From an uncultured Verrucomicrobiae bacterium (GTDB lineage: Bacteria > Verrucomicrobiota > Verrucomicrobiia > Limisphaerales > UBA11358): a stretch of DNA of 64,000 nucleotides. Location: NCBI GenBank assembly GCA_963802965.1, contig CAWDKS010000003.1:274813-338812 (forward strand), written 5' to 3'. Both the position numbers and the translations under genes were made by a program. The notes beneath the pieces were generated by a model. That model saw nothing but the letters and a program-made list of their open reading frames with translations, was not told the DNA's origin and did no database searches. This document shows positions 760 through 56,273 of the stretch, piece by piece. How positions within the stretch are numbered: the stretch's first letter is position 1; every line of letters starts with the position of its first letter.

Positions 760-1297
760 GGTCACAACTTCGCCCAAGGGCGGATGGGATGGTGATGCGG
801 CCGGGCGCGCGGGGCGCGAAAAACAAATTCCCGGCAGGGCGCCGGAAAGGCCGCTTTGGTTTGTCCGTCTCAATATGTTTGCGTCTTGAGATCATCGCCA
901 TCCTGTCCGGTTTCGTTTCCGGCGACCAGTTGTGATGCCATTCCGCCCGGCGTTGAGCTTGCTTCCGCCGACAAACCTGATGCTGCGCCTGGAGGCGGAT
1001 TGGACCCGCCTGGCCTTGGTTTCAGAGCAGTGCCCCAACGCTGTCCGTTGGTCCGCTTTAGCTGTTACAAGGTTGACCTGGCGCAACTGCCAAGCCTGTA
1101 AAAACAAGCTAATGATTGGGAAGCGAAGTGGCTTAACCGTTTTTGTCAATTGCTTGATTTTTTTTGGGCGGGCGTTTTAACGCGGAACCCGAACGAAAAA
1201 GCTTTGAAAATATCCGCCCTTGCCGGCATTCGTGAAATTTGTTGCAATCCGGCGATGTTGGATTGAAATTCTCCCTGTTCGAGACAGGATTGAAAGC

Positions 1298-1483
1298 ATG
1301 AGCGCCAAGCAAATTCTCCTGGAAGTGGCCGAAAAACTGCCGCCCGACGCCACCATCAGTGACGCCATTTACGAATTGGAGTTTCGCCAGGCCGTCCAGC
1401 AGGGCTTGGATGAATTGGACCGTGGCGAAGGCGCGCCGATCGAGGAAGTCAAAGCCAAGATCGCCCAATGGGCTGGAAAATAA
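1298..1483 (+). CDS. putative antitoxin (ParD/addiction-module-component-like)
   Basis: Internal ATG of ORF 1220-1483 gives MSAKQILLEVAEKLPPDATISDAIYELEFRQAVQQGLDELDRGEG. It is small and acidic, and its stop overlaps the start of a ParE-like ORF. Confidence 0.5.
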   Translation: MSAKQILLEVAEKLPPDATISDAIYELEFRQAVQQGLDELDRGEGAPIEEVKAKIAQWAGK

Positions 1484-1557
1484 TCATCGCCCCCTCGGCA
1501 CAGTCTGACTTGGCCGATATTGTCCGCTATGTGGCCTACGCCGATTTCTTTGTGTAA
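1468..1557 (+). pseudogene. ParE/RelE-like toxin, N-terminal remnant (29 codons)
   Basis: The ATG at 1468 overlaps the antitoxin 3' end. MGWKIIIAPSAQSDLADIVRYVA resembles ParE N-termini. The frame then diverges and stops at 1555-1557, exactly at the junction with the convergent MBL gene end (1536). Confidence 0.45.
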
Positions 1558-2696
1558 AGTTTCGACAACGGTTTCGCATCACCGAATGTTGTAACGTTCC
1601 AACTGCCGGATTCAGGGCTAATTTTTCTGCGTGCCCGCACATGGCCAAAGGAATCGTTCACTTTTTTAATGTAGCGGACAGTTTCGTGGATGGTGCGATT
1701 TACGGTTCCAGTTTTTGCGCGGCTGGAACGGTCATCAAACCCTGCCGTAATGAATGAGTTTCTGGACCTTCCCATGATTCGTTTCGCATCACTTTCCTTT
1801 GGTAACTTGACGCGACCTGAATTGAACGGTGTTAGCAAGGCCACTGGTTCTCTGATTAGCATGTCCGTCCAAACCGGATCGTATTCGCCGGTTTTGGAAC
1901 CATGATGAGGAATTTTGAACAACGAAGCTTTCCCGTCGGGGCGCTCCGAAGATTCGACTATCAATTTCCACCCGCCGGACGGATTGTCTTTTTCTTCCAT
2001 GTCAGCACCAAGCAGCAGTCGGACACCACCCACCCGCAACCACAGCACAACTGAAAATTGATTTGGGCGCGGCGGAATCGGCTTCGTGAGAAGCTCTCCC
2101 GTTGGAAAAAGTGAAGCGATCATTTCCAGTGATTTTTTTATGGCAGCGTCAGACGGAGATAAAGAATGGAGTTCCGCAGAAGTGCCGTTACTGGTCTCTT
2201 CCTCGGAACGCCGCCTCCAGAGACATTGGTTGGGGGCGGCAAAACCCAACGGAAAGTCACCTTTGCCGCCTTTCAATGCTTCTGCCGACCTGGCCAGCAT
2301 CTCAATAACCCGACTCAATTCATCAACTGGTGATGACGGAAGCCCATTTTTTTTCCATAGGTCTGTCAGGGCAACAAATTCTTTTGACCACAAAGCCTGC
2401 GAACAAATGAACTTGGCGGACGAACATTCAGAAACCGTTTGTGCTAGACCGCGCACATGATCCTTGTGCCAGTGGGTTGCGACAACCCGCTTCACAGACT
2501 TGGAAACATCCACACCGATTCGCTTTAGATAATCCAAACCCGCCGGCGTTTGACCATCCGGGCCAAGGCAAGAATCTACGATGATCCAATCGCCCTCGCC
2601 TACATGGGCAACAATACATTCCCCGAATCCCGGTCCAAAAAGGGAAATCTCCAGTTCGTCGGATTCAGGCTGGGTGGTTGGCTCGCTCAAGATCAA
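1536..2696 (-). CDS. stand-alone MBL-fold metallo-hydrolase, ComEC/Rec2-type beta-lactamase-like domain with C-terminal extension
   Basis: 386-aa ORF with motifs VATHWHKDHVRG (HxHxDH), LLLGADME and FKIPHHGSKTG. No transmembrane part. AT-richer than the flanks. Confidence 0.8.
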   Translation of the reverse strand: MILSEPTTQPESDELEISLFGPGFGECIVAHVGEGDWIIVDSCLGPDGQTPAGLDYLKRIGVDVSKSVKRVVATHWHKDHVRGLAQTVSECSSAKFICSQALWSKEFVALTDLWKKNGLPSSPVDELSRVIEMLARSAEALKGGKGDFPLGFAAPNQCLWRRRSEEETSNGTSAELHSLSPSDAAIKKSLEMIASLFPTGELLTKPIPPRPNQFSVVLWLRVGGVRLLLGADMEEKDNPSGGWKLIVESSERPDGKASLFKIPHHGSKTGEYDPVWTDMLIREPVALLTPFNSGRVKLPKESDAKRIMGRSRNSFITAGFDDRSSRAKTGTVNRTIHETVRYIKKVNDSFGHVRARRKISPESGSWNVTTFGDAKPLSKLYTKKSA

Positions 2697-3312
2697 GGAA
2701 GGAAAGGAATGTTTCCGCCGCTTTCTTGGCTCGCTCCACCTCGGCAGGCGACCACGAGGGCAATCTTTGAAAACGAATCATTGAGGAACGAGAGACTTGT
2801 CCATAATCTTCCCGCCGGTAGCCGATCACCCAATAAAACACCGCGCCGGGTTTCACCAGTTCGCGGTCTCCGGGCATGATTTCAGCCAAGGGAATCTCGG
2901 CTTCCTCCTCCGGGTTGGCGTTGGTTTTGTCAATCAACCGCGCAAGGAACGAATCACCTTGCACCGACTGGACGGTGCCCTCGAATCTCTGGAGAACGTC
3001 AAAACCCTCACGACTCGGCGGTATGACCGGCACCCATACGACGGCCGGCTTGTCTTCCGGTTCCGCACGTAGCCGTTTACTGTCCATTGTATAGCTATAG
3101 TATGGAAACCCGTTGCCTTCCGGCGCTTTGAAAACCCGTGAACCCGCTGGATTGGACAAAAACCCCCGGCATTCCAACCGCGAACCGGTGAGATTGGCAG
3201 CCTCTTCTTCGGAGGACAACCGCGCCTTTTCCCTAACGAGCCGCCGACCAGACGACAAATCCGCCGTCTCAAGGTGCGACGGTTCCAAAACAGCTTCGTC
3301 AGTCAGTTTCAT
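2665..3312 (-). CDS. hypothetical protein (no recognisable family)
   Basis: 215-aa ORF. Its ATG overlaps the upstream stop as ATGA (3309-3312) and its 3' end overlaps the MBL gene start by 32 nt. An alternative start is the ATG at 3087. Confidence 0.5.
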   Translation of the reverse strand: MKLTDEAVLEPSHLETADLSSGRRLVREKARLSSEEEAANLTGSRLECRGFLSNPAGSRVFKAPEGNGFPYYSYTMDSKRLRAEPEDKPAVVWVPVIPPSREGFDVLQRFEGTVQSVQGDSFLARLIDKTNANPEEEAEIPLAEIMPGDRELVKPGAVFYWVIGYRREDYGQVSRSSMIRFQRLPSWSPAEVERAKKAAETFLSFLDLERANHPA

Positions 3313-3965
3313 AATTTCATCAAAGTTTGCATGATGTGGAGCGAACGTGCAAGGGAGGTTTGCCAGGACGCAGCCAAAATTTCCATCATGCGGTCACACT
3401 GATTGCCTTTCTCCTCGGCGTCGTTATCAAAATGGTCATTCACTTCAATATAAGCGCCAAACGGCTTTGCTGTCAACGAAGGCTCGACCGCAACGGAAAT
3501 TCTTCCTTTGTAATCATCGGGGCGTATGCCCTGCATTTGGATCCGCCTCATGCCCGGTTTTTCCAGCAGACCGGCCCACGGTTCTTTGGGAGCCAGGCGA
3601 TGCCCAAGCTGGTGCCATGCTTCTTCGCTCGGACTCCGAAAATGCGCGATGCGGTTGATGCCCATTTGCTTGACGGGCGTATGGCGCAGCAAACCAAAAG
3701 CGCCCAGCACCAGATCACGGAGCGGTTCAAGATTCTGAACCTGCGTCGTGCGAGCCGCGAAGCGATCCAGCGTTACCTCCACTGCCAGCCAGCCGATGGA
3801 AAACACACTGACATCATGCGAGACAATTTTGACGTCCGCCCGGTCGGCTTCCTCCTGCTGAATTAATTTTTCGCGCGCAAACCAAACGGGATGAAAGATG
3901 GCCGGATTAAACGAGCCAACCAACACGACGCTCACTTCTTCAAGCTCTGGTTTCAGGTCGGACAC
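3309..3965 (-). CDS. hypothetical protein (no recognisable family)
   Basis: 218-aa ORF and first gene of the three-gene minus-strand cassette. No signal peptide or TM segment is evident. Confidence 0.65.
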   Translation of the reverse strand: MSDLKPELEEVSVVLVGSFNPAIFHPVWFAREKLIQQEEADRADVKIVSHDVSVFSIGWLAVEVTLDRFAARTTQVQNLEPLRDLVLGAFGLLRHTPVKQMGINRIAHFRSPSEEAWHQLGHRLAPKEPWAGLLEKPGMRRIQMQGIRPDDYKGRISVAVEPSLTAKPFGAYIEVNDHFDNDAEEKGNQCDRMMEILAASWQTSLARSLHIMQTLMKL

Positions 3966-4150
3966 AGGATTAAAGCTTGCACATTAAGCAGCAATCCTAC
4001 CAGCTAAATCAAGCACGGTTTTCAACTCATGGTTTTGGCGCGTTAATTCGATTGGACAATGACAGCCAACGGCGACCGGAAATCCACCGGCAGCGGCTTT
4101 GGTTGCAGGTTGCGTTTTGATTTTTTAACCCGAGGCAGCCCCTCGATGAA

Positions 4151-5062
4151 TCAGTTCCGCGCTTCCGGATTTTTTCGCCGCGCGGCGAGGCCCAGGGGTT
4201 CGATGTGTACGAGCACGTCGCTGACGGCGGGTTTGGCGCCGCGGATTTTGTCCTTCACCGCGTGGGCGATTTCATGCGAGCGGAGCACGGTCATTTGCGG
4301 GTCCACTTCCACGTGCATGTCCACGAAATACTGATAACCCACCTTGCGAACGATGCATTTTTCCACCCTGCCCACGCCGGGCGTGTCCCGGGCGAGCTGG
4401 CGGATTTGGTCAATGATTTCACGGCTGGGCGCGGCGTCCATGAGTTCGTTGAGCGCCGGACGAAGCAAATGCCAGCCGTTCCACGCGATGACCCCCGCCG
4501 CCGCAATCGCCGCCACGTCGTCGGCGGCCTCAAAACCCCTGCCGCCGATGAGCGACACGCTGATGCCGATGCCGGCGGCCACGGACGTGATGGCGTCGCT
4601 GCGATGATGCCAGGCGTCCGTGCGCACGGCGGAACTGTCCACCGCCCTGCCTTCGCGCGAAACAAACCGGAACAAAATTTCCTTCACCGCCACCACCGCG
4701 ACCAGCACGATGAGCGTGAACGGCGCCGGCGCTTGGTGCGGTTCCCTGATTTCGCCGAACGCCTTGAGCGCGATCCAGAGCGCCGCCCCCAACAACATCG
4801 CGGCCACGATGGCGGAGGCAATCGGCTCGGCCTTGCCGTGGCCGTAGGGATGGTCTTCATCCGCCGGTTCCGCTGCGACGATGACTCCGCGCCAGACGAT
4901 GAGCGAGCTGAACACGTCGGCAAAGGACTCGACGGCGTCGGCGACGAGCGCGTGCGAATGGCCGGCGATGCCCGCGGCGAGTTTTGTGCCCGACAATACG
5001 ACGTTCGTCGCCATGCCGAGGAAGGTGGCGCGCAGGCTGCGTTGGAGACGGGTCAAGGGCAC
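4151..5062 (-). CDS. cation diffusion facilitator family transporter
   Basis: 303 aa with HSHALVADAVESFADV, DHPYGHGKAEP and WHHRSDA. It has six hydrophobic segments plus a C-terminal cytoplasmic domain. Confidence 0.9.
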   Translation of the reverse strand: MPLTRLQRSLRATFLGMATNVVLSGTKLAAGIAGHSHALVADAVESFADVFSSLIVWRGVIVAAEPADEDHPYGHGKAEPIASAIVAAMLLGAALWIALKAFGEIREPHQAPAPFTLIVLVAVVAVKEILFRFVSREGRAVDSSAVRTDAWHHRSDAITSVAAGIGISVSLIGGRGFEAADDVAAIAAAGVIAWNGWHLLRPALNELMDAAPSREIIDQIRQLARDTPGVGRVEKCIVRKVGYQYFVDMHVEVDPQMTVLRSHEIAHAVKDKIRGAKPAVSDVLVHIEPLGLAARRKNPEARN

Positions 5063-5152: not shown

Positions 5153-6235
5153 ATGAATCGCAGCCGTCCATCCTTCCTTTCGGTCCGCGCCGCCGTGTTG
5201 CGCCCGCCGGGCGGTCCGCTGAAAATCGAGCGCCTGCAAATGGAGGGGCCGCGCGCCGACGAGGTGCTGGTGCGCCTGATCGCCAGCGGCATCTGCCACA
5301 CCGACATTGGTTTTTGTGAAGGCGGCGCGCGCGGCCCGGTGGTGCTGGGCCATGAAGGGGCGGGCGTGGTGGAACGGGCCGGCGAAAAAGTCAGAGGCGT
5401 GAAACCGGGCGACCACGTCGTGCTTTCCTACCAATCCTGCGGCCATTGCCCGGCATGCCGGCGCGGCCATCCGGCCGGCTGCGAACATTTCTGGAAGGCG
5501 AACTTCGGCTTCGCCCGGCTGGACGGCAGCAACGCGTTTCAAGGCGGTGTGCGCGGGCATTTCTTCGGCCAATCCTCGTTTGCGACCCACACGCTGGCGA
5601 CCGAACGGAATCTGGTGAAAGTTTCAAAATCGCTTCCGCTGGAATTGCTGGCGCCGCTGGGATGCGGACTGCAAACCGGTGCGGGCACGGTGTTGAACTC
5701 GCTGGCGGTCAAAGCCGGCTCGAGCCTCGCTGTTTTCGGCACGGGCGCGGTCGGGCTGGCGGCGGTGATGGCCGCGCGACTCGCGCGGGCGCGGACAATC
5801 ATCGCCGTGGACATCAATCCGCGCCGTCTCAAACTCGCCCTGGAGCTGGGCGCAACGCACAGCATTGACAATCGCAACGCCGATCTCGCCCGGAGCATCG
5901 CTGCCATCACCGGCGGCGGCGCCGACTACATCGTCGAAACCAGCGGCGCGTTGTGTTCGGAGGCCGCTGACTTGCTCAACCCGCGCGGCACGGCGGCGTT
6001 GTTGACCGGCGTGAGTGGTCCCGACTGGCTGCCGGGCGGACGCCGGGTTCTCAGTGTCATCGAAGGCGACGCGGTGCCGCAATTATTCATCCCGAAACTG
6101 ATCAAGCTGCATCAGGACGGGTGTTTTCCCTTTGACCGTCTGGTGAAATTTTATCGGTTCGCCGAAATCAACCGCGCCATCGCCGATGCCAGACGCGGCG
6201 ACACCATCAAGCCCGTGCTGCGGATGGGAAAGTGA
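5153..6235 (+). CDS. zinc-dependent NAD(P) alcohol dehydrogenase (aryl-alcohol dehydrogenase-like)
   Basis: C-terminal 360 codons of ORF 4205-6235, starting at MNRSRPS. Motifs are GICHTD, GHEGAGVVE, CGHCPACRRG and VFGTGAVGLAAV. The upstream part of the ORF is antisense to the CDF gene. Confidence 0.9.
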   Translation: MNRSRPSFLSVRAAVLRPPGGPLKIERLQMEGPRADEVLVRLIASGICHTDIGFCEGGARGPVVLGHEGAGVVERAGEKVRGVKPGDHVVLSYQSCGHCPACRRGHPAGCEHFWKANFGFARLDGSNAFQGGVRGHFFGQSSFATHTLATERNLVKVSKSLPLELLAPLGCGLQTGAGTVLNSLAVKAGSSLAVFGTGAVGLAAVMAARLARARTIIAVDINPRRLKLALELGATHSIDNRNADLARSIAAITGGGADYIVETSGALCSEAADLLNPRGTAALLTGVSGPDWLPGGRRVLSVIEGDAVPQLFIPKLIKLHQDGCFPFDRLVKFYRFAEINRAIADARRGDTIKPVLRMGK

Positions 6236-6300
6236 AATGTGATGCGTGACACGTGAAGAAATGGTTTCTTCCGCTCACGTTTCACGTCTCACGTCTCACG
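6236..6300. repeat. simple-sequence hairpin (arms built from CACGTGA/TCACGTC-like units)
   Basis: gtgatgcgtgacacgtgaag ... ctcacgtttcacgtctcacgtctcacgc are roughly complementary arms directly after the ADH stop. Confidence 0.5.
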
Positions 6301-6304
6301 CAAT

Positions 6305-6340
6305 CAGGTGGCAGAACATTCCGTCGCGGAGCTTGGGCTC
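6305..6340. repeat. 36-bp direct repeat, orphan copy of the DUF1015 gene 3' end
   Basis: caggtggcagaacattccgtcgcggagcttgggctc is identical (36/36) to 8813-8848. The reverse translation is EPKLRDGMFCHL. Confidence 0.9.
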
Positions 6341-6433
6341 ACGGGTCGAGCAATGAGCGGATGGGTGCTTGCGGGTTATCCTTCCGTTCGCGGAGAATTT
6401 TCTCCAGCCGTTGCCGCAAACCCGCGCTTTGAT

Positions 6434-8674
6434 TCAGTAAAACAGGTTGGCCCCGAAATCTGGAGTCTTCCCATCCATGACTTCGGCAATCCACTTGTCC
6501 AATTTGCCGCGGTCCATTTTCCAAAACTTGCGACAGTGCATGAAATACTCCACCACCGTATCGCGCTCGCCTTTTTCCAGAAGGTCTTTGGCCAGAGTCA
6601 TGTTGGGGCCGAAACTGTCCATCGTTGGCGAGCCGGGACTTTTGCCGGCGGCAATCAGATACTTTTTTGCCGCTTCGATGTTGCCTTCGCGCGCGGCAAT
6701 CCGGCCAAAAACCAAGTTGGCGTCCTGAATGGCATTTCCATAGTTCCAGTCACCTTTGTATTTCGGCAGCAGCGTCGTCAGCTCTTGGGCGTAATTTCGC
6801 GCATCATCAATTTTGTCGGCCACAAAACTCTCCTTGGCGGCGGCGTCAAGCGCATAAAATCGTTTCTCTTCCGTTTTGGCCGTTTTCAAATCATTCATCG
6901 CCCGCTTGTAGTTTTGCCGGGATATGTCTTGTAGAGAAAGGGACGGAAAGGAACCCGTGTAATGTTTTATCAGAACAAACGACAACGGGACGAACAACAG
7001 ACACCCAATCATGATTCCCCGTTGCACACGGGTGGAAAACGTCCGCACCCGTGGCTTGATGAAAAAATCCGCTTCCGGCACCTGGCCAACCGCGCGTTCC
7101 GCCGCCGCCAAATCCCCGTTGTTAAATTTGACCCACGCGGACTCAATCGCCCACGAAACAACATTTTCCAACTCGCTGTCGGACGGAAGTTTTTCACCCT
7201 GCAACCGCCGGAGAGTTTTCCGGTCTGTTTGACCCAATCTGGCCGCCACTTTGCCATCCGGTTGCAATAACAGGCGGGAATTCTGCGACCAGCTTGGAAA
7301 ATTTCGCAGCATACTCCAAACTGACGCTTTTGCCGGCGGCAGCCTTAATTCGAGTCCGTCTTCAGCCCAACGATGATTGCTGGCCAGCCAGCGTGTGCCG
7401 AGGAAGCGGGCAAAAGCGAGCAGCTCTTCTTCGGTGCAATTGTGCTTCTCTTGAAAGTCCGCATCATCGGCTTTCAACAAGCCTTCGGCTCCGCGCACAA
7501 ATAAATTGTAATCCATCCGCATGGGCTGTTGGGTTTGATACCGCACCATTACGAATGATTGAAGCAGGATCAGTATCATACACCAGCCCAGCGGCATCCA
7601 ACCCAATCCGACCAACAAAAACGACAAAAACAAAACGCTGTTGCAAAGCATGGCAGCAATGGAATAATGGCTTCGATTGATTGACACCCGTTTGATTTGG
7701 AAGGGCAACATGACCAGGCCAATGCCAGCAATTATGAGATAAAATGTTTTCCAGTTGCTTGGATTGAGCCGCGGTATCAGAAACCACATTCCCACCATTA
7801 TCAGTGCGAACCACAGAACCCCCCACCGCGTATTTTCACGGAACAAGCGGGCGCGAAACCCTTTTTGATCCCGGAAATTTGCCAGCTCCAGCCGCATGAG
7901 CAGCCAATGAACCAGCACAAAAGGCAGGAAAAACAGCAGCGCGAAAGATGAAATAACCCATTTCACCGGCGCAAGTTTAGCGAGGGTTCCCAAAATCGTC
8001 GCGCCAATGCCGCCCGCCGTCGCAGCTTTCGCGGTCGAAGATGCCAGCACGCCGGCCATGATGGCGGGAACCAGCGTTTTGGCCGGCCCCAATTTCGCCA
8101 GCGAGCCTTCTAGTTTTTCCTCGAGCCGTGCGCGCATCGCGGCGCGGGCGCGGTGCAGGCGCACGCGCAAGGCGGTTTCGGAAATTCCCAGCGCCGCCGC
8201 CGCTTCCGCGCCACTCCTGCCTTCGAGATAAAACAGCACCAGACATTCGCGGTGCGAATCCGGCAGTTCCGCGAGCGTCTGCCGCAAGGTTTCCGGCGTG
8301 TAAAGCGGGTCGGTTTCGTCGCCGGAATTTTCTTCGGTGGAGTTGTCCGGATTTTCCAGCGCCCAACGTTTGCGTTTGTTGAGTTCACGGCGATGGCGCA
8401 GGCCGAGATTGATGGCAACGTGGCGCGCGATGGTGTTGACCCAAGCGGCGAATTTCGCGCCGTCGCCGAGCAGCCACAGCCGCCGATACGCGCGGATGAA
8501 CGCCTCCTGCGTGACCTCTTCCGCAAGCGCGGCATCGCCGAGCCGGCTCCATGCAACGGCATATACACGCCGCTCATGACGCTCGACGAGTTCACGGTAG
8601 CGCTCGGCATCGCCGCGCCGCACGGCGGCCACGGCGGATTCGTCCTGTTGCGCGCTGGTCATTTCGGTTTGCAT
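6434..8674 (-). CDS. ECF-type sigma-70 factor fused to a polytopic membrane region and a large C-terminal domain
   Basis: 746 aa. Residues 1-190 carry sigma region 2 and 4 (RYRELVERHERRVYAVAW..., ECLVLFYLEGRSGAEAAAALGISETALRVRLHRAR). Several hydrophobic helices follow (aa ~200-400 and ~570), then a helical-repeat-like tail. Confidence 0.8.
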   Translation of the reverse strand: MQTEMTSAQQDESAVAAVRRGDAERYRELVERHERRVYAVAWSRLGDAALAEEVTQEAFIRAYRRLWLLGDGAKFAAWVNTIARHVAINLGLRHRRELNKRKRWALENPDNSTEENSGDETDPLYTPETLRQTLAELPDSHRECLVLFYLEGRSGAEAAAALGISETALRVRLHRARAAMRARLEEKLEGSLAKLGPAKTLVPAIMAGVLASSTAKAATAGGIGATILGTLAKLAPVKWVISSFALLFFLPFVLVHWLLMRLELANFRDQKGFRARLFRENTRWGVLWFALIMVGMWFLIPRLNPSNWKTFYLIIAGIGLVMLPFQIKRVSINRSHYSIAAMLCNSVLFLSFLLVGLGWMPLGWCMILILLQSFVMVRYQTQQPMRMDYNLFVRGAEGLLKADDADFQEKHNCTEEELLAFARFLGTRWLASNHRWAEDGLELRLPPAKASVWSMLRNFPSWSQNSRLLLQPDGKVAARLGQTDRKTLRRLQGEKLPSDSELENVVSWAIESAWVKFNNGDLAAAERAVGQVPEADFFIKPRVRTFSTRVQRGIMIGCLLFVPLSFVLIKHYTGSFPSLSLQDISRQNYKRAMNDLKTAKTEEKRFYALDAAAKESFVADKIDDARNYAQELTTLLPKYKGDWNYGNAIQDANLVFGRIAAREGNIEAAKKYLIAAGKSPGSPTMDSFGPNMTLAKDLLEKGERDTVVEYFMHCRKFWKMDRGKLDKWIAEVMDGKTPDFGANLFY

Positions 8675-8714
8675 AATCTAACCGAAAGACAGCGGCGAAG
8701 GGAAATTGTTACAA

Positions 8715-8806
8715 CGACCGGACATTTACGATTTGCGATATACGATTTACAAGGCTGCTCCAATTTCGAGACTGGCGCGTAAATCGTAAATCGTCATTCG
8801 TAAATG
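8715..8806. repeat. simple-sequence hairpin (ATTTACG/CGTAAAT units)
   Basis: catttacgatttgcgatatacgatttac ... gtaaatcgtaaatcgtcattcgtaaatg. Same architecture and unit as 11015-11095. Confidence 0.55.
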
Positions 8807-10087
8807 TCAGAGCAGGTGGCAGAACATTCCGTCGCGGAGCTTGGGCTCGAACCAGGTGCTTTTCGGCGGCATGACGCCGCCGGCGTCCGCAATCGCCATC
8901 AAATCCTCGATGTTCACCGGGAACAGGGAAAACGCGCAGGCGGCTTCGCCGCTGTTCACGAGTTTTTCCAATTCCGCCGTCCCGCGAATGCCGCCGACGA
9001 ATTGGATGCGCCTGTCCGTGCGCGGGTCTTTGACGCCGAACACCGGCTCGAACACGTGTTGTTGGAGCAGGGTCACGTCGAGTTGCTCAACCGGGTCATC
9101 GGTCGCCCACAATTTCCTGGGAAAGATCAGCGTCCGCCATCGGCCGCCCAAATAAAGGCTGACTTCATGATTGCGGCCGGGGGCGGCCGCGCCGTTTGGG
9201 TCCATGGCAAAAACGGTGCCGAGGATTTCCAGCGCCTGTTCCGGGGTCCAGCCGTTCAAATTCTTCAACACGCGGTTGTAGGGCAGTATCTGCATCCGGT
9301 CGTGCGGGAAAATCACGGTCAGAAATTGTCCGCTGTGATCCCGTTCCGTGGCAGCCGACGTGAGCCGGCTCTGGCTTTTATCCGCAGAAGTTTGAGCGGA
9401 CTCACGTCCGCTGCCACGTTTCAAATAAATGCGCGCCGCCGCCGCGCTGCGATGATGGCCGTCGGCGATGTAAAGCGCCGGAACCTCCGCGAATTCGGTT
9501 TCGATGAACTGGATTTCCTTCGCGGCGTGAATCGTCCACGACGAGTGCCGCACGCCGTCCTTGGCGGTGAAATCAACCTCCGGTTTTCCGGAAGTTTTTT
9601 TTGCGATGAATTCGGCAACCAACTTTGGGGCGCGACCGGCCAGGGACGCCGGGCCGGTTTGCGCATTCAGCGCTTCGATGTGCCGCACCCGGTCGTCCTC
9701 CTTGTCCGGGCGCGTGAGCTCGTGCTTCTTGATGACGCCACGCAGGTATTCCCCGCAATCCGCCGCGGCGACCAGACCGGTCTGCGCGCAATCGCCCATA
9801 ATTTGCCGATACAGATAAAAACACGGCTGCGGGTCCTGCCGCAGCGCGCCGTCGCGGATGAGCTTTTGAAAATTTTCCCGGCCCCGCGCATAAACCTCCG
9901 GCGCGCAAGCGTCCGTGCCCGGCGGCAGGTCAATCTCCGGTTTGCTGACGTGGAGAAAGCTCAACGGATTGCCGGCGGCCATCTGGCGGGCTTCGTCCGA
10001 CGACATCACGTCGTAGGGCAGCTCGCAGATTTTTTCCGCGAGTTCCGGTTTGGGTCGCAACGCGGCGAAGGGTTTGATGGTCGCCAT
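8807..10087 (-). CDS. DUF1015 domain-containing protein
   Basis: Start taken at MATIKPFAALRPKPELAEKICELPYDVMS (ATG 10087). It also contains YIADGHHR and C-terminal PPKSTWFEPKLRDG, typical of DUF1015. Confidence 0.85.
   Translation of the reverse strand: MATIKPFAALRPKPELAEKICELPYDVMSSDEARQMAAGNPLSFLHVSKPEIDLPPGTDACAPEVYARGRENFQKLIRDGALRQDPQPCFYLYRQIMGDCAQTGLVAAADCGEYLRGVIKKHELTRPDKEDDRVRHIEALNAQTGPASLAGRAPKLVAEFIAKKTSGKPEVDFTAKDGVRHSSWTIHAAKEIQFIETEFAEVPALYIADGHHRSAAAARIYLKRGSGRESAQTSADKSQSRLTSAATERDHSGQFLTVIFPHDRMQILPYNRVLKNLNGWTPEQALEILGTVFAMDPNGAAAPGRNHEVSLYLGGRWRTLIFPRKLWATDDPVEQLDVTLLQQHVFEPVFGVKDPRTDRRIQFVGGIRGTAELEKLVNSGEAACAFSLFPVNIEDLMAIADAGGVMPPKSTWFEPKLRDGMFCHLL
8813..8848. repeat. 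36-bp direct repeat, genic copy (DUF1015 3' end)
   Basis: Identical to 6305-6340. Here it encodes the true C-terminus ...EPKLRDGMFCHLL-stop. Confidence 0.9.
9346..9418. repeat. palindromic ~75-bp element (twin GTGA-loop hairpins) embedded in frame in the DUF1015 CDS
   Basis: ccgtggcagccgacgtgagccggctc...gagcggactcacgtccgctgccacg. The same termini and hairpins occur in the intergenic copy at 29697-29774. Confidence 0.7.
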
Positions 10088-10200
10088 AGGGCGGCGGGAG
10101 GATAAGTTGCAGGACGCGGGAAGGCACGCAGAAATTGCCGAAATAGTGCTTGCCACCGGGGTTTTTATGACTATGCTGCGCGCTCCCGATTGGGGATTTT

Positions 10201-10470
10201 ATGGCACGAATTTGTGAATTGACCGGCAAAGGCCCGATGAAGGGCAGCATCATCTGGCGCAGTGGCAAACCCAAAAAGCAGGGTGGCATCGGCACGCACA
10301 TCACCGCCATCACCAAACGGCGTTTCCTGCCGAATTTGCAGCGTGTGAAGGCCGTGTTGCCCAGCGGCGAAGTGCGTTACATGCGCGTCGCCGCCAGCGC
10401 GCTCAAAAAGGGCCTCGTCATCAAGGCGCCGAAACGCACCTGGAAGAAGCCCGAAACGGCCAAGGCCTGA
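10201..10470 (+). CDS. rpmB: 50S ribosomal protein L28
   Basis: MARICELTGKGPMKGSIIWRSG...RRFLPNLQRVKA is the L28 signature. Confidence 0.95.
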   Translation: MARICELTGKGPMKGSIIWRSGKPKKQGGIGTHITAITKRRFLPNLQRVKAVLPSGEVRYMRVAASALKKGLVIKAPKRTWKKPETAKA

Positions 10471-10548
10471 TTTTCCGGCGGTGATGGAGAATGGCGTTCC
10501 GCGAGGAACGCCGGTTTCTTTTCCATCCTCAATCTTCCATCTTCGTTC

Positions 10549-11004
10549 TTATTTACCCTTGAACCGGTGCATTTGGGCGCGTTTGAGTTCGCGGTCGGAT
10601 TCGCGCTGTTTCAATTCCTCGCGCTTGTCGTATTGCTGTTTGCCCTTGCCGACGGCCAGCGCGACCTTCACCTTGCCGTTCTTCCAGTAAAACGCGAGCG
10701 GCACCAGCGCGTGGCCTTTCACGGCGGCCAGGCCGAAGAGCTTCCGGATTTCCGATTTGTGCAGCAGCAATTTGCGCGGGGCCTTGGGCTGGTGGTTCTG
10801 GAGGTTGCCGTGCGAGTATTCGTCAATGTGCGCGTTGTATAGCCAGACCTCGTCCTTTTCCACGCGCGCGAAGGCGTCGTTGATCTGCCCCTTGCCCGCG
10901 CGCAGCGACTTGACCTCCGTGCCGCGCAACACGATGCCCGCCTCGAAGGTTTCAAGGACGTGATAATCGCGCCGCGCCTTGTGATTGGTCACGATGTCGG
11001 CCAT
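10549..11004 (-). CDS. smpB: SsrA-binding protein
   Basis: From the ATG at 11004: MADIVTNHKARRDYHVLETFEAGIVLRGTEVKSLR...LLLHKSEIRKL. Confidence 0.95.
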   Translation of the reverse strand: MADIVTNHKARRDYHVLETFEAGIVLRGTEVKSLRAGKGQINDAFARVEKDEVWLYNAHIDEYSHGNLQNHQPKAPRKLLLHKSEIRKLFGLAAVKGHALVPLAFYWKNGKVKVALAVGKGKQQYDKREELKQRESDRELKRAQMHRFKGK

Positions 11005-11014
11005 GACCAATCTT

Positions 11015-11095
11015 AGATTTACGATGGACGATTTACGAGGTGAATTTGGAACGAAGCGCGATTCGTAAATCGAAAATCGCAAATCGTAAATGGCT
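11015..11095. repeat. simple-sequence hairpin (ATTTACG/CGTAAAT units)
   Basis: agatttacgatggacgatttacgagg ... cgattcgtaaatcgaaaatcgcaaatcgtaaatgg, lying between smpB and rpoZ. Confidence 0.55.
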
Positions 11096-11365
11096 TCACT
11101 TCTTCCGGCGTTTCTTGGGTTGCGGGCGGACCAGTTCGACCGGCTCCGGCACTTCCCAGCCGATTTTTTCCTCGAGGATTTCGCGCAACGCGATGTCCGC
11201 CGCGCCAAGGTTCGTGGTGTCCGTCACCAGCGGCCGGCTCAGACCGCCGCCGCCGGAATTGAGCTGGCGCACGCGCCGCGAAATCAGGTTGACGAGGACG
11301 TTCGGGTTGCCGACTTTTTCAGCGGCCCTTTTGCAGAGTTCAGCGTTCACAATTCGTTTTGACAA
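11096..11365 (-). CDS. rpoZ: DNA-directed RNA polymerase subunit omega
   Basis: 89 aa: NPNVLVNLISRRVRQLNSG...ADIALREILEEKI. Confidence 0.9.
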   Translation of the reverse strand: MSKRIVNAELCKRAAEKVGNPNVLVNLISRRVRQLNSGGGGLSRPLVTDTTNLGAADIALREILEEKIGWEVPEPVELVRPQPKKRRKK

Positions 11366-11463
11366 ACAGAGTTGGAAATCCTAATCGTTCCCGTCCCAAA
11401 TGCAATAAGAAAATTCTCCTTAAAACTTGCGCGAATTGAGGGCGTTTTCTAAAACAAACCGGC

Positions 11464-12363
11464 ATGTCCGCAACGACCCGATTCAATCTGCCGCAATTTC
11501 TGGCCACGCGCACGGAAACCGTCAACCGGGCGCTCGATGGATTCCTGCCGTCGGCGACCACGAGGCCCGCCACCATCCACAAGGCGATGCGTTACTCGCT
11601 CTTCGCCGGCGGCAAGCGGATGCGTCCCGCGCTCTGCCTCGCCGCCGCGCAGGCCTGTGGCGGACGCGAGGCCGATGCCCTGCCGCTCGCGTGCGCCGTC
11701 GAGTGCATCCACACCTATTCGCTCATCCACGACGATCTGCCGGCGATGGACAACGACGATTTCCGCCGCGGCAAGCCCACCAACCACAAGGTCTTCGGAG
11801 AAGGCATCGCCGTGCTCGCGGGCGACGCGCTATTGACGCAGGCGTTTGAGATCGCTGCGCAGGGCAGGGGATGGCCGCGCTATCCGCATCGCGATTTGAT
11901 TCTGGAAATTGCGAAGGCCGCCGGTTCACTGCAACTCGTCGCCGGGCAGGTGGCGGATTTGGAAGGCGAAGGCAAAAAACTTTCCATCGCCGAATTGAAA
12001 TTCATCCACGAGCGCAAGACCTCCGCGCTGCTCTGCTGTTCCGTGCGGCTGGGTGGCATGAGCGCGAACTGCACGTCCGCGCAGTTCCGCGCGCTGACGG
12101 ATTTCGGCTATCACGTCGGGCTCGCCTTCCAGGTGATTGACGACATCCTCGATGTGACGCAGACCAGCGAGCAGCTCGGCAAGACGGCGGGCAAAGACGT
12201 GGCCGTGCAAAAGGCGACCTACCCGGCGATTGTCGGGCTGGAAAAATCGCGGCAGATCGCGGCGCAACTGACGGCCAAGGCGTTTGCCGCGCTGAAAATT
12301 TTCAAAGGCAAAGCTGTCGCTCTCGAAGCTCTAGCGGAATTTCTTTTGAAAAGGGAGAAATAA
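11464..12363 (+). CDS. polyprenyl diphosphate synthase (FPP/GGPP synthase family)
   Basis: Contains the first and second Asp-rich motifs, LIHDDLPAMDNDDFRRGKPTNH and FQVIDDILD. Confidence 0.9.
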   Translation: MSATTRFNLPQFLATRTETVNRALDGFLPSATTRPATIHKAMRYSLFAGGKRMRPALCLAAAQACGGREADALPLACAVECIHTYSLIHDDLPAMDNDDFRRGKPTNHKVFGEGIAVLAGDALLTQAFEIAAQGRGWPRYPHRDLILEIAKAAGSLQLVAGQVADLEGEGKKLSIAELKFIHERKTSALLCCSVRLGGMSANCTSAQFRALTDFGYHVGLAFQVIDDILDVTQTSEQLGKTAGKDVAVQKATYPAIVGLEKSRQIAAQLTAKAFAALKIFKGKAVALEALAEFLLKREK

Positions 12364-12656
12364 AATTACTCATCAACCGAAACAAAGGTATTTTTTGAAA
12401 TGTAATCCTGCTCAATAAAATTTTTCTGTTCGCCGTTTTTGCGCGAGAAGCCCGAGAACTTAACTGGCAAGCCACTGTAATCCAAAGAATTGTGACAGAG
12501 AAAGGCTTGTTCTTGCAGAAGATGAAAATAATTGCAAAAGCACCAATCCAGAACAAAAGATTCTTGACGAGTTTTTGCATTTGATTTTCTGCGTTTGTGA
12601 ATAGCAGCTAACTTTGATTCAAGCAAGTGGGATTGGCGTTGCTCACCAAAAGTTTT

Positions 12657-12718
12657 TCATTCGCTCCACTCGCCGGCTTGCAGATACGGCTTGAGTTTTT
12701 CCTTGAGCGTTTCGCGTC
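12657..12718. repeat. copy 1 of duplicated ECF sigma 3' end (orphan)
   Basis: 62 nt with 3 mismatches to 14184-14245. Reverse translation [18 protein letters not shown]-stop. Confidence 0.85.
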
Positions 12719-12763
12719 TGCAAAAATCTTTGATTCTTTCCAAAGTAATGCTAGTCTTACCGC

Positions 12764-13018
12764 ATGATTGCCAAAGTTTCAGTCAAAGGCCAGACGGTGA
12801 TTCCCGAAGCGGTGCGCGAGCAGGCGCGGATCAAAAGCGGCGATGAACTGGACGTCGGCTACGCCAACGGACTGATCGTGATGCGCAAACGCCGCGCCTT
12901 GACGCCCGCGCGCGTCCGCGCGCTGATTCTGTCCGGTCGCGAACTTCCCGAAATGACGCCGGCGGCTGAAGCGGTCGTGTCGCAGGCCGTCCAGCGGGTC
13001 CGCCGCCGCCGCAAATAA
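12764..13018 (+). CDS. AbrB/MazE/SpoVT-family antitoxin
   Basis: MIAKVSVKGQTVIPEAVREQARIKSGDELDV. The stop overlaps the PIN gene ATG. Confidence 0.8.
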   Translation: MIAKVSVKGQTVIPEAVREQARIKSGDELDVGYANGLIVMRKRRALTPARVRALILSGRELPEMTPAAEAVVSQAVQRVRRRRK

Positions 13019-13422
13019 TGAGGGTCGTCTTCGACACCAACGTCGTCGCCAGCGCGAGCTTCTGGCGCGGAACGCCGTTTGATTGTCTGGCGGCGTGGGC
13101 GAAAGGCCGTTGCGAAGCCGTGGTCAGCCCCGCGTTGCTCGCCGAATACCACGAAACCGTCGAGGAACTTCGTTTGGAATACCATGGACGGCCGTTCGTG
13201 CCGTGGGCGGATGCGCTGGCCGGGTCCGCCACGCTGGTTTTTCCCGTTGAACGCGCCACGGGCGCAACGCCTGATCCCGCCGATGAAATGATTTTGGAAT
13301 GCGCGCTGGCGGCGGAGGCGGATTACCTCGTGACCGGCGACAAAAAACATCTGCTGCCCTTGAGAAGATTTCAGGAAACCCCCATTGTCGGCCCGTCAGA
13401 ATTTCTTCGCCGATTGGTTTAG
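13018..13422 (+). CDS. PIN-domain toxin
   Basis: MRVVFDTNVVASA...PDPADEMILECALAAEADYLVTGDKKHLL, matching the PIN acidic residues. Confidence 0.8.
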   Translation: MRVVFDTNVVASASFWRGTPFDCLAAWAKGRCEAVVSPALLAEYHETVEELRLEYHGRPFVPWADALAGSATLVFPVERATGATPDPADEMILECALAAEADYLVTGDKKHLLPLRRFQETPIVGPSEFLRRLV

Positions 13423-13429
13423 AGGATTC

Positions 13430-13488
13430 TCATCCGCTCCACTCGCCGGTTTGCAGATATGGCTTGAGCTTTTCCTTGAGCGTTTCGC
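13430..13488. repeat. copy 2 of duplicated ECF sigma 3' end (orphan)
   Basis: 59 nt with 3 mismatches to 14184-14242. Reverse translation [18 protein letters not shown]-stop. Confidence 0.85.
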
Positions 13489-13495
13489 ACCCGGT

Positions 13496-14182
13496 TTAAT
13501 TCCCCGACCATTTGTAGTCGTAGCCGTCGGGCGGTTCGTATTTGACCGGAAACCCGCCGCCGCCCTGGACTCCGTTCCAGTAGATTTTGATGTAATCCAC
13601 GTGGCCGTCCACAAAGCTCATCACGTTGCGCGCGTCCGGGAATTGCAGCGGCTGCCGGCGGTCGTGGCTGCTCAAGCCGATGCCACCGGAATCTTCCCCG
13701 ATCAGTTCGGTCCGGGCCGGCTCGTGCACGGAGGCGAACGGCTTCTGCGCCATGTCCAGTTCGTTCGTGTCGTCATTGAACACGCCGCCGTTGAACCAGT
13801 AGCTGGAAAAATGGGTATCCGGCAGGTTGCAAAAGCCCCGGCATTGGAACGGGCCGAACAGCCATTGGCCGATCGGGCCGGACAAGTCGAAATCATCGGC
13901 GGCGCACACGAAAACGGCGTTGTTGGATAAACCCCCGCCGATATACGGCAAAATGTTTTCTTTGTAATCGAAGTAAATGGAATTGGTGTAGTAAGCGATG
14001 GCATCGCCGTGTTCATCCGCATACAGATGGACGGCCAGATTGATTTGACGAACATTGCTGACGCACGCGATTCGTTTGGCAGACGACTTGGCCCGGCTCA
14101 ATACCGGCAAAAGCAAGGCCGCAAGAATGGCGATGATGGCAATCACCACCAGCAGTTCAACCAAGGTGAACGCGCGTTTCAT
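13496..14182 (-). CDS. prepilin-type N-terminal cleavage/methylation domain protein (DUF1559 / H-X9-DG type)
   Basis: [32 protein letters not shown] at the N-terminus. Near the C-terminus, the H and DG in [13 protein letters not shown]. Confidence 0.85.
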
Positions 14183-14183
14183 T

Positions 14184-14245
14184 TCATTCGCTCCACTCGC
14201 CGGTTTGCAGATACGGTTTGAGCTTTTCCTTGAGCGTTTCGCGTC
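14184..14245. repeat. copy 3 (genic) of the ~60-bp repeat
   Basis: The last 20 codons plus stop of the sigma gene. Matches 12657-12718 and 13430-13488. Confidence 0.85.
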
Positions 14246-14786
14246 CGCGATGGATGAGCGATTTCGTGGCGGAGAGTGAGCAGTCCAGAATTTCGGCGAT
14301 TTCCTCGTAGCTCAAATCCTCCTGCCGGCAGAGCAGAATGGCCGTGCGCTGGTTCTCCGGCAGTGCGGCCAATGCCTCCTCGATTTTCTGCGCGAGTTCG
14401 CCGTGCAACAGTTTTTCCGGGGCGGCGATTTGTGATTTGTCCTCGTATTGCTGGCGCGGCTGGTCCTCGTGCTCGGCGTGAGCCTCCTCGATGGATTCGG
14501 CGGGATGCCGCGAGCGCCGGCGGAGTTCATTCAGGCACAGGTTGCGCGCGATGGTGAACAGCCACGTGGAAAATTTCGCCGTCCGTTTGTAGCGGCCCCG
14601 GGATTTGTAAACCTGCAGGAAAACCGTCTGTGCCAGGTCCTCGGCCTCAATCTCGTCGCGCAGCGAGCGGTAGATGAAATTCAGCACCGGCTGCTTGTAT
14701 TTGTCCACCAGCCCGGCAAACGCCGCGCGGTCGCCGCGTTTCACGCGGAGCATCAGGGCGGCATCGGGGTCGGGCTGGACTGGCAT
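14184..14786 (-). CDS. ECF-type RNA polymerase sigma-70 factor
   Basis: Start taken at [23 protein letters not shown] (the ORF extends to 14852). Contains [20 protein letters not shown] and [27 protein letters not shown]. Confidence 0.85.
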
Positions 14787-14855
14787 CGCATGGAGTTTAA
14801 CCAACAAGGCGCGTGCGACAAGGTTTCGCTCGTTCAAGCCGGGACAATTCAATTA

Positions 14856-15000
14856 AACCACGGATGGACACGGATGAACACGGATGCAGACAAGGCAAAA
14901 TGGCGTCTTCAGGGAACCGGGAATACCTCGTTGGCCAGTGAACTCATTTACTTTGCTGAAGTCTTTTTCTATCCGTGTTTATCCGTGTCCATCCGTGGTT
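14856..15000. repeat. MITE-like element with 30-bp terminal inverted repeats built from CACGGATG units
   Basis: aaccacggatggacacggatgaacacggat (14857-14886) against atccgtgtttatccgtgtccatccgtggtt (14971-15000). 29 of 30 positions are complementary, with an 84-bp spacer. Confidence 0.7.
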
Positions 15001-15178
15001 GAACGTTTTTCTACGGCATGCTTCCGGTTAAGAACCGGCTGACTTCGAGCGTGGTTCGCCAATAAGTCCGGAACGGCCCCAAAAAAATGTGTCGCCGCCA
15101 AAAAGCTTTCGATAAGCTCCGGACGTCAGACCTGACAAAACGGGACAGGTCATCATTTAATCCATACCGAAACAGCGC

Positions 15179-20226: not shown

Positions 20227-20320
20227 TGCCCGCAACGACTTGATTGGGTGACTACGGCGAACAATGCGGGCGTTATGAATGTCCCGCAATCGGATTTGAC
20301 CGGCGGCCGGCCAGCCATAG

Positions 20321-20453
20321 GGCGCATCTTGACACTGCCCCCGGAGCGCCGGTCTCCGACCCGGCAAGAATCGAGAATCTTCCAGAAACGCGCCGGATCG
20401 GAGATCGGCGCTCCGCCATTGCCGCCAAGTCGGGGGCAGTGTCAAGATGCGCC
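20321..20453. repeat. 133-bp nested palindromic element downstream of accC
   Basis: The outer 22-bp arms ggcgcatcttgacactgccccc / gggggcagtgtcaagatgcgcc are perfectly complementary. The inner arms ggagcgccggtctccgacccggc / gccggatcggagatcggcgctcc have 2 mismatches. Confidence 0.75.
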
Positions 20454-20523
20454 CCCGGCCATTCCTTTTTCAGAATTAGATTTGACAGCGGGGTGGGGCC
20501 GCTTATCTTGATTCGCAAACATT

Positions 20524-29696: not shown

Positions 29697-29774
29697 TGTA
29701 ACAGCGGACGTGAGTCCGCTCCAATCTTACGCGAATCTCAGGAAAAATGAGCCGGCTCACGCCGGCTGCTACAA
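29697..29774. repeat. palindromic ~78-bp element (twin GTGA-loop hairpins), intergenic copy
   Basis: tgtaacagcggacgtgagtccgctc...gagccggctcacgccggctgctaca. Same family as 9346-9418. Confidence 0.7.
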
Positions 29775-52502: not shown

Positions 52503-53246
52503 TCAGCTTCCACTCGTCGTGGTTAAAACCATGTTCGTGCGCGACTGCGAATCAATCGGCACAACCATTTCAATCGGTTCCGCCGTCGCGCCGCCATTGC
52601 CCGACATTTGAATGTCCACGCGGACGGCGGACGGCAGGTTCGTGTTCATCGAGGTCAGGCCGGTGGTGTCCCAGGTGTCCTGCCATTGCGAGCCGTCAAA
52701 GCAGGAAAATTTGATGCTCGCCACGCCGCTCAGCATGAGCTGGTCTTCCACTTCCGGCGTCGTCAGGGTCAACAGATTCCGCGTGACGCTGCGGACCAAA
52801 TCCCGGCCGGTGGCGGAGCGGTCGGCCGGCTGCCTCAACTCGTAGGTGACGCGCTGGATGTCGGCCCACGGCGCGTTGACGCCCAACGCGCCGGTCGCGG
52901 TGAACATCTCGATCGCCACCGGTTCGGGCACGCCGGGACTGGTCACGTCGCCGACCTTGAAATCGCCGGACAGAACCTTGCTCGTCCCGTTGGTCGGCGT
53001 CACGGCGCACTGCAAATCGCGGCGCAAAAACGTGACCGTCTGATCCACCGGCCCGGCCGCGTCCACGACATCGCTTGTCGCCTCGCGCAGACGCAGCGCG
53101 GCAAACAGCACGGCGTTGACGGCGATCAGCACAATGGCCGCGACGCCGATGGCGAGAACCATCTCAATCAGCGTGAACGCGTGGCACGGCGTTGAAGCGT
53201 TGAAGCGTTGAAGCGTTGAAGTGGGCAACGTGCGGCCACGCTGCAT
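52503..53246 (-). CDS. GspJ-like minor pseudopilin
   Basis: ...STLQRFNASTPCHA-FTLIEMVLAIGVAAIVL. Start uncertain (ATG 53246 or 53300). Confidence 0.65.
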   Translation of the reverse strand: MQRGRTLPTSTLQRFNASTPCHAFTLIEMVLAIGVAAIVLIAVNAVLFAALRLREATSDVVDAAGPVDQTVTFLRRDLQCAVTPTNGTSKVLSGDFKVGDVTSPGVPEPVAIEMFTATGALGVNAPWADIQRVTYELRQPADRSATGRDLVRSVTRNLLTLTTPEVEDQLMLSGVASIKFSCFDGSQWQDTWDTTGLTSMNTNLPSAVRVDIQMSGNGGATAEPIEMVVPIDSQSRTNMVLTTTSGS

Positions 53247-53299
53247 CGTTTCAACGCTGCATCGCTCCAACGGCCTATCTTTTTTTGTTTCAATTTTCA

Positions 53300-56166: not shown

Positions 56167-56181
56167 TTGAAATTCAGGAAA

Positions 56182-56273
56182 ACATCCAACAACGAACATC
56201 CAACAACGAACATCCAATGCACGGAAAGCCACCGCCATTGGGCGTTGGATGTTGGATGTTGGATGTTGGATGT
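56182..56273. repeat. simple-sequence hairpin (CATCCAA / TTGGATG units) between gspE and gspF
   Basis: acatccaacaacgaacatccaacaacgaacatccaatgc ... gcgttggatgttggatgttggatgttggatgt. Confidence 0.7.

Follow-up and report, generated by a model that had tools for sequence, protein, structure and literature searches.

Does a perfect direct repeat on either side of a bacterial gene mark a recent or active mobile element? A locus of an uncultured Verrucomicrobiae bacterium of the Limisphaerales (GenBank assembly GCA_963802965.1, contig CAWDKS010000003.1) raises this question. We analyzed positions 274,813 to 338,812 of the contig, a stretch of 64,000 nucleotides that we call the window and whose first letter is position 1 of all coordinates below. 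In it, 36 bp from the 3' end of a DUF1015 gene occur on both sides of a gene encoding a sigma factor fused to hydrophobic segments (the sigma-fusion gene). A preliminary description of the DNA had interpreted these copies as attL and attR, the attachment sites left by an element that integrates into the 3' end of a gene and carries a replacement for that end. Our comparison with related genomes suggests instead that the repeat is probably an old, inherited insertion scar that recombination has kept identical, and not the footprint of a currently mobile element. The event is of an ordinary, known kind, documented here in unusual detail, and does not constitute a new kind of system.

Two copies of one gene end

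The 36-mer CAGGTGGCAGAACATTCCGTCGCGGAGCTTGGGCTC has exactly two copies on the forward strand, at 6305-6340 and 8813-8848, with no mismatch between them. Allowing up to three mismatches revealed no further copy in the window, 100 dinucleotide shuffles yielded 0 matches, and the 36-mer is the longest exact direct repeat of the 64 kb, the runner-up being a tandem simple repeat of 30 nt. The copy at 8813-8848 (A1, minus strand) is the working end of the DUF1015 gene. It encodes the last 12 codons, EPKLRDGMFCHL, is followed by CTC TGA (L-stop), and is contiguous with the open reading frame (ORF) at 8807-10156 on the minus strand, which is the target of the insertion. This ORF of 449 amino acids, the likely true start of which lies near 10087, matches PF06245 over its full length (E = 7.7e-94, profile positions 1-325 of 325).

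The second copy belongs to an orphan (A2, 6302-6340, minus strand), a pseudo-3' end of DUF1015 with no DUF1015 sequence upstream of it. Beyond the exact repeat at 6305-6340 its frame continues ATT GCG TGA (..CHLIA-stop), and the GCG TGA that ends it is supplied by the first units of a hairpin, hp1 (6240-6301). The existence of the repeat, the genuine end and the orphan with its different tail thus all stand as first described. Homology between the orphan and the DUF1015 ends of relatives extends over 39 nt, 3 nt more than the exact repeat, and takes in the Ile codon; by blastn, 6302-6340 is 92% identical to the DUF1015 end of a relative, L011 (11183-11221; loci from other genomes carry L numbers), again with the Ile codon included. 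The working copy A1 of the window lacks this codon. Because the Ile tail of the orphan matches the DUF1015 end of relatives, the orphan is the displaced ancestral 3' end of the gene.

Between the copies, the interval 6341-8812 consists of a 93-nt tail, the sigma-fusion gene, a promoter-like leader of ~41 nt and one long hairpin. The sigma-fusion gene is the sole ORF, as had been reported, and the tail and leader lie beside it together with the hairpin. It occupies 6434-8674 on the minus strand and encodes 746 amino acids: an N-terminal extracytoplasmic function (ECF)-type sigma-70 domain at residues ~17-185, then ~6-7 hydrophobic segments predicted from hydropathy, and a C-terminal domain. Pfam matches to Sigma70_r2 (2.1e-13), Sigma70_r4_2 (2.6e-13) and Sigma70_ECF (8.7e-5) all exceed their cut-offs, and only sigma-70 regions 2 and 4 are present, which is the composition of an ECF-type factor. 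Full-length homologues number in the hundreds in Verrucomicrobiota.

The leader of this module (8675-8715, minus strand, GTTGTAACAATTTCCCTTCGCCGCTGTCTTTCGGTTAGATT) marks the left limit of homology across all genomic contexts, and the motif TGTAACAA..GCTGTCTT..GGTTA, found upstream of the sigma gene in every context, suggests that it is a putative ECF-type promoter. The tail (T, 6341-6433, minus strand) encodes ..RLEKILRERKDNPQAPIRSLLDP-stop and is conserved in all relatives with the module at DUF1015; in these contexts module homology ends exactly at the tail stop, and the orphan's first bases overlap that stop. Variable sites in the tail number 5/4/16 at the three codon positions. The 31 codons beyond the sigma-fusion TGA are conserved as protein (..IKAWVCQQRLEKILRERKENPxAPVRSLLDP-stop). 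They are in frame with that TGA in L082 (tail at 2400-2495), L094 (2622-2717), L097 (2736-2831) and L087 (8284-8382); independent 1-nt deletions shift the frame in the window and in L081, and outside the DUF1015 context (L083, L084, L095) the tail has degenerated. These 31 codons may be an extension reached by read-through of the UGA, or they may form a small ORF.

An inherited insertion in related genomes

A metagenome scan for sigma-fusion loci gave at least 10 loci, and the orphan is known from five genomes: the window, L081, L082, L094 and L097. Uninterrupted sites, which the preliminary description had proposed to look for in relatives, are present in L011, L002, L005 and L012, where DUF1015 is followed directly by a cation-efflux (CDF) gene (4151-5062, minus strand, in the window). 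Because relatives have DUF1015 directly before CDF, the sigma-fusion gene is an insertion, and CDF is the ancestral downstream neighbor of DUF1015. This differs from the junction first proposed, which joined DUF1015 to a Zn-dependent alcohol dehydrogenase (ADH) gene (5153-6235, plus strand; Pfam ADH_N and ADH_zinc_N) that lies outside the bracketed segment and is convergent to the orphan. ADH is absent at this position in every relative examined (L011, L081, L082, L094 and L097). Since all relatives sharing the scar lack it, ADH was inserted later, and the comparison marks it in all likelihood as a second, window-specific insertion between the orphan's hairpin hp1 and CDF. About 12 nt at the equivalent place in L094 resemble the 3' end of ADH, so that loss of ADH from L094 is possible.

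In L081, L082, L094 and L097 DUF1015 is followed by the module and the orphan, after which come a hairpin and CDF. Their sigma proteins are 94, 90, 86 and 82% identical to that of the window, respectively; L081 is colinear with window positions 9335-6303 at 92% and L082 with 8835-6303 at 91%. The joint of tail stop and orphan, ..GACCCGT/GAGCC.., is identical in all four. Because four other metagenomic lineages share this junction, the event is old and inherited; with sigma proteins only 82-94% identical and the orphan decayed in two of the lineages, the recent event supposed at first is not tenable. Two further loci, L093 and L090, have the module after DUF1015 on contigs that stop before the orphan position.

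Presence of the module is patchy among genomes that are ~90% identical, L011 being empty and the window, L081 and L082 filled. L011 is otherwise close, its neighboring proteins being 86-96% identical to those of the window, and L011 and the window are equally close to L082 (DNA identity 93/93/91% for CDF, 90-91% for a histone-deacetylase-family gene). Relatives with the sigma gene at this site and no repeat had been named in advance as evidence against an integrated element. L087 and L088 fit that description: they have the order DUF1015-hairpin-sigma-tail without an orphan, and their sigma proteins are ~60% identical to that of the window. Their downstream flank is rearranged, with unrelated LemA, NadC, BirA and CoaX genes after the tail, which leaves their testimony ambiguous.

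Elsewhere the sigma-fusion gene occurs in contexts unrelated to the DUF1015 end. In L098-L104 its protein is 65-69% identical and the gene follows a cytochrome oxidase (cox)-SCO1-DUF420 operon, and in L101, L102 and L104 it lies ~5 kb from an IspA-RpoZ-SmpB-L28 cluster, which flanks DUF1015 in the window. Because the gene is found near this cluster in both settings, it has moved within one chromosomal neighborhood. In L095 and L096 it lies beside defense genes and a tyrosine-integrase/relaxase element; in L095 this is an integrative mobilizable element (IME; 10250-14741; tyrosine integrase, relaxase) that begins ~56 nt past the sigma stop, inside the tail, and GAP1/DO-GTPase defense genes lie upstream. 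L083 has the gene beside a relaxase island and a group II intron (1026-3746, 12707-13834), with a relaxase 75% identical to that of L095 on the other side and the intron's reverse transcriptase downstream. The setting in L084-L086 is plain chromosomal.

How the two copies have changed since the insertion differs among lineages. When all copies are aligned, the orphan differs from the genuine copy of its own genome at 11/39 positions in L094 and 13/39 in L097, and at 2/39 in the window (both in the last codon), 1/39 in L081 and 2/26 in L082, which has a partial copy. Codons 3-4 of the orphan show common derived states (G.C ATC) in L094 and L097, so the orphan was already diverging before these two lineages split, which points to one old event. 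Such decay is the behavior expected of a non-functional scar.

The window group behaves otherwise. Here orthologous copies differ between genomes at 4-6/39 sites, and between the window and L081 positions 6, 9 and 34 change in parallel in both copies. Codon 7 encodes a derived Gly in genuine copy and orphan alike (GGA/GGA in the window and L081, GGC/GGC in L082); every outgroup has the ancestral GCG, as do genuine copy and orphan of L094 and L097. Given the likeness within genomes and the derived codon 7, descent from a single old insertion is on its own insufficient to account for these orphans. The pattern indicates that the window-group orphan was overwritten from the genuine copy by gene conversion, or that the module was re-acquired with the right crossover at the start of the orphan. 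The perfect identity that had been taken for a fresh att duplication therefore reflects homogenization by recombination, as the copies co-vary here and decay elsewhere. Identity among these strains is mosaic, at 83-99% per 150-nt window, and DUF1015-end types are discordant with sigma similarity; together these show that homologous exchange is frequent at the locus. As in concerted evolution by gene conversion, paralogous copies 2.5 kb apart are closer to each other than orthologues are between genomes, and silent sites co-vary, but the tract is only 36-39 nt, near the minimal RecA pairing length, and one partner is a non-functional scar.

Origin of the scar and competing explanations

How could the module have reached this position? 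The most likely origin, at about even odds, is that a donor with sigma after DUF1015, of the L087 type, recombined into a DUF1015-CDF recipient by a homologous exchange on the left and an illegitimate one on the right. In this single event a self-contained module, comprising the promoter-like leader, the sigma-fusion gene and the 93-nt tail, would have entered DUF1015 within its last 13 codons. The left crossover would lie inside the DUF1015 gene. To the right, an illegitimate joint sharing 2-3 nt of microhomology would connect the tail's end to a point 39-45 nt short of the stop codon in the recipient. The DUF1015 end brought in by the donor would thereby become the working end A1, and the recipient's own end the orphan A2 beside CDF. 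Later the arrangement was inherited and also exchanged among related lineages by homologous recombination, and ADH entered between the orphan's hairpin and CDF. Having no coding role, the orphan decays if left alone; in the window group it was re-homogenized with the genuine copy, so that the two are identical over 36 nt. As a one-step recombination between donor and recipient gives the observed structure, no recombinase would be needed. What the comparison shows is the insertion, its polarity, the junction common to the lineages, decay as against homogenization, and the lack of a recombinase; the donor arrangement and the illegitimate join are inferred.

This scheme resembles homology-facilitated illegitimate recombination, in which incoming DNA is anchored by homology on one side at uptake and which is known from Acinetobacter, Pseudomonas stutzeri and Streptococcus pneumoniae. 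Shared with it are the continuous DUF1015 homology on one side, the abrupt joint ..CCGTGA/GCC.. with 2-3 nt of microhomology on the other (the overlap is only the GA of the tail's stop codon), independence from a recombinase, and a plausible donor arrangement in L087. In the classical examples recipient DNA is usually lost, whereas 39-45 nt have been duplicated here, and the present event is ancient and reconstructed.

Several observations weigh against this origin. The donor arrangement is seen only in L087 and L088, whose sigma proteins are the most divergent (55-63% amino acid identity), so L087 is not the donor lineage, and its gene order might itself have arisen from the filled state if a rearrangement struck this boundary. 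The right limit of the module is the same in two contexts, next to the orphan in most loci and next to LemA in L087, which would also suit an element with a defined end. In L011, the spacer between DUF1015 and CDF is unlike both flanks of the filled loci and matches nothing else, so that L011 may either never have had the module or have lost it across the repeat. Furthermore, the hairpin directly after the DUF1015 stop, hp2 (8720-8808), is 90% identical, in inverted orientation, to the hairpin found behind the orphan of L081 and L082 and behind the genuine end of L087; the scheme explains this inversion only through independent turnover of palindromic elements, to which we tentatively attribute it. 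Finally, illegitimate joins are unprovable from sequence alone.

An alternative close to the interpretation in the preliminary description takes the repeats for attL and attR left by a decayed integrative element resembling a cis-mobilizable element (CIME). A tyrosine or serine recombinase would have targeted the DUF1015 3' end and the element would have carried a surrogate end; its integrase and transfer genes would later have been deleted to leave sigma as sole cargo, with movement in trans still possible. CIMEs have lost the genes for integration and transfer and kept attL and attR (PMC5704250). The geometry fits: direct repeats bracket the insert, the upstream one completes the target gene, an orphan lies at the far side, the site is empty in relatives, and no integration or transfer genes lie between. 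The junction position is identical in all carriers, presence is patchy among ~90% identical genomes, and the tyrosine-integrase/relaxase element ~56 nt after the orthologous sigma stop in L095 shows recombinase-bearing elements to associate with this 3' flank.

What is lacking is any trace of the recombinase. The preliminary description had noted that no integrase or transposase is present, and this is borne out: Pfam finds only sigma-factor and helix-turn-helix domains on the bracketed gene, tblastn of the L095 integrase gave no match in the window, and no integrase, excisionase, relaxase or pseudogene remnant lies between the repeats in the five filled loci that span the interval, which hold only promoter, gene, tail and hairpins. 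No DUF1015-end-like (attP) sequence with up to 10/39 mismatches is found in the module flanks of L083-L086 and L095-L104; six other contexts of the module were covered. The spacers between A1 and the promoter in L094 and L097 share no sequence with the integrase flank of L095 that could represent mobile-element remnants; the L095 element sits in a different context and shares no sequence with the spacers at DUF1015 loci. Among 72,556 plasmids there is no full-length sigma-fusion homologue, only sigma-domain matches below 34% identity. Moreover, the orphan tracks the DUF1015 variants of its host lineage, for which an element-borne core would need repeated conversion, and the insert is a single housekeeping-type regulator gene, chromosomal in many contexts, with no related integrase-bearing element at the site. 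Nothing here thus points to descent from an integrative and conjugative element or an IME. Of the hallmarks of integrative elements, repeats that complete the target gene and an empty site are thus present, and an integrase and an attP copy are absent. Insertion into the gene's 3' end with a displaced orphan holds from the original interpretation, and the att-site mechanism is probably wrong; we consider a decayed CIME-like element unlikely.

A related idea sees the sigma module as a cassette without an integrase that leaves the DUF1015 3' end and returns to it again and again in Limisphaerales populations, through recombination across the 36-39-nt repeat by RecA or by a recombinase encoded elsewhere and acting in trans. 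If true, this would explain the patchy presence, the identical junction across DUF1015 types and the renewed perfect repeats, and would describe a minimal mobile unit that targets a gene end and carries a membrane-tethered sigma factor; we regard it as rather improbable. The repeat itself could permit precise, RecA-type loss of the sigma gene. Such a loss would leave the deletion joint DUF1015...CACCTG-ATTGCGTGA-hp1 and the circle joint tail-GAGCCC...CACCTG-CTCTGA-hp2.

Local tandem duplication of the segment from the DUF1015 end to the tail, with subsequent loss of the second sigma copy, would create exactly the novel joint seen between tail and A2, and L087 has the un-duplicated order DUF1015-sigma-tail. 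Yet this route takes two events, the second a precise deletion from the promoter to the tail end, and among the loci examined there is no genome with two sigma copies or another intermediate, nor any relative with sigma and tail joined to CDF without an orphan, all of which makes it very unlikely. Selection for a function of the 36-mer at both places, as a protein-binding site or as an RNA 3'-end element before a terminator hairpin, would accord with the long hairpin immediately after each copy and with their co-variation within genomes. It is made extremely unlikely by the state of the orphan in L094 and L097, where decay has reached 28-33% within an arrangement that is intact in other respects, and by the divergence of orphans between genomes at the pace of neutral DNA (5-6/39 positions). 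Predicted local structure in the 36-mer is trivial, an Rfam scan of 5900-9100 returned nothing at gathering score and one weak snoRNA match below threshold, and a promoter and terminator scan gave nothing informative.

An assembly artefact, in which 36 nt shared by two strains (one with the sigma insertion, one with DUF1015-hp1-ADH) caused a mis-join, is scarcely credible: the window's orphan tail and hp1 do resemble the genuine end of L097 and the L094 locus rather than the closest relatives L081 and L082, and exact identity does stop at the tail, but the tail/orphan junction was assembled independently in four other metagenomes, the window flanks are equally close to L082 (91-93%), the usual assemblers finish with k-mers longer than 36 nt, and a chimera would still need a near-perfect orphan in the sigma-bearing strain.

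Two further candidates were set aside. Transposon target-site duplications likewise flank an insert with a direct copy of target sequence, but usually measure 2-15 nt against 36-39 nt here, and there is no transposase. The order A1-hairpin-gene-tail-A2-hairpin places the right hairpin outside the second repeat, so that no terminal inverted repeats lie inside a short fixed duplication; a composite element that is bounded by hairpins and made a long target-site duplication was therefore rejected. Integration of the Campbell type, from a circle with the DUF1015 end and a hairpin, is disfavored, as it predicts hairpins in direct orientation and the observed ones are inverted.

Palindromes and plasticity around the locus

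The two hairpins next to the gene ends belong to a larger set. Hairpin hp1, between the orphan and the convergent ADH gene, has arms in which the heptamer CGTGAxA is arrayed (-40 to -41 kcal/mol, z -2.4 to -3.2). The orphan's tail and a hairpin of the hp1 type also stand behind the orphan of L094 and behind the genuine end of L097. The arms of hp2 (8721-8750 and 8779-8808) are of the CGTAAAT type (-42 to -43 kcal/mol, z ~-3.9). Long hairpins with arms of 7-8-nt unit arrays abut stop codons at 6240-6301, 8720-8808, 11011-11092, 14853-15003, 20320-20454, 53189-53272 and 56181-56273. In relatives that are ~90% identical, orthologous hairpin positions hold different families or the opposite orientation, and families are dispersed: the post-DUF1015 hairpin of L094 matches window positions 20342-20415. 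From their distribution, these stop-codon hairpins appear to behave like mobile palindromic elements, similar to repetitive extragenic palindromes (REP) or miniature inverted-repeat transposable elements (MITE).

A palindromic element also lies inside the DUF1015 frame (9338-9426, arms 9347-9371 and 9394-9418), with a related copy at 29702-29772. It adds 23 codons, RESAQTSADKSQSRLTSAATERDH, that are missing in L011, L081 and L002; at this point of the gene L087 carries another insert, of 20 codons. The element recalls the palindromic elements of Rickettsia, which insert into genes. The DUF1015 protein of the window is only 75% identical to that of L011, yet DNA identity is 83-87%, like that of neighboring genes; we considered a foreign allele and rejected it, as the drop comes largely from this in-frame insertion. 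Exact-sequence look-ups of the window's DUF1015 protein, with two choices of start, and of its sigma protein found no record.

Two other segments vary nearby. Some 3.1 kb of the window (995-4150) are missing in L011 and L082, where CDF adjoins the histone-deacetylase-family gene; the segment contains two minus-strand ORFs, 2665-3312 and 3309-3965, neither with a Pfam match. At 12655-14835 lie three tandem units of ~760 nt each, 87-94% alike over a 67-nt stretch, one of which carries a small ECF-sigma-like ORF that is 30% identical to the fusion protein's sigma domain. This repeat family is also present at the equivalent place in L011 and L002.

The neighborhood is thus unusually plastic, with a relocated sigma module, a later ADH insertion, and palindromes swapped at stop codons and inside the DUF1015 frame. 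Within it, a perfect repeat proves to be an unreliable guide to whether a mobile element is recent or active, a point of consequence for the automated prediction of islands and att sites. For these bacteria, the locus provides a clean, datable example of the addition of a regulator gene to the chromosome without damage to the target gene: the last 13 codons of the target were duplicated, and the spare copy decays or stays identical through recombination.

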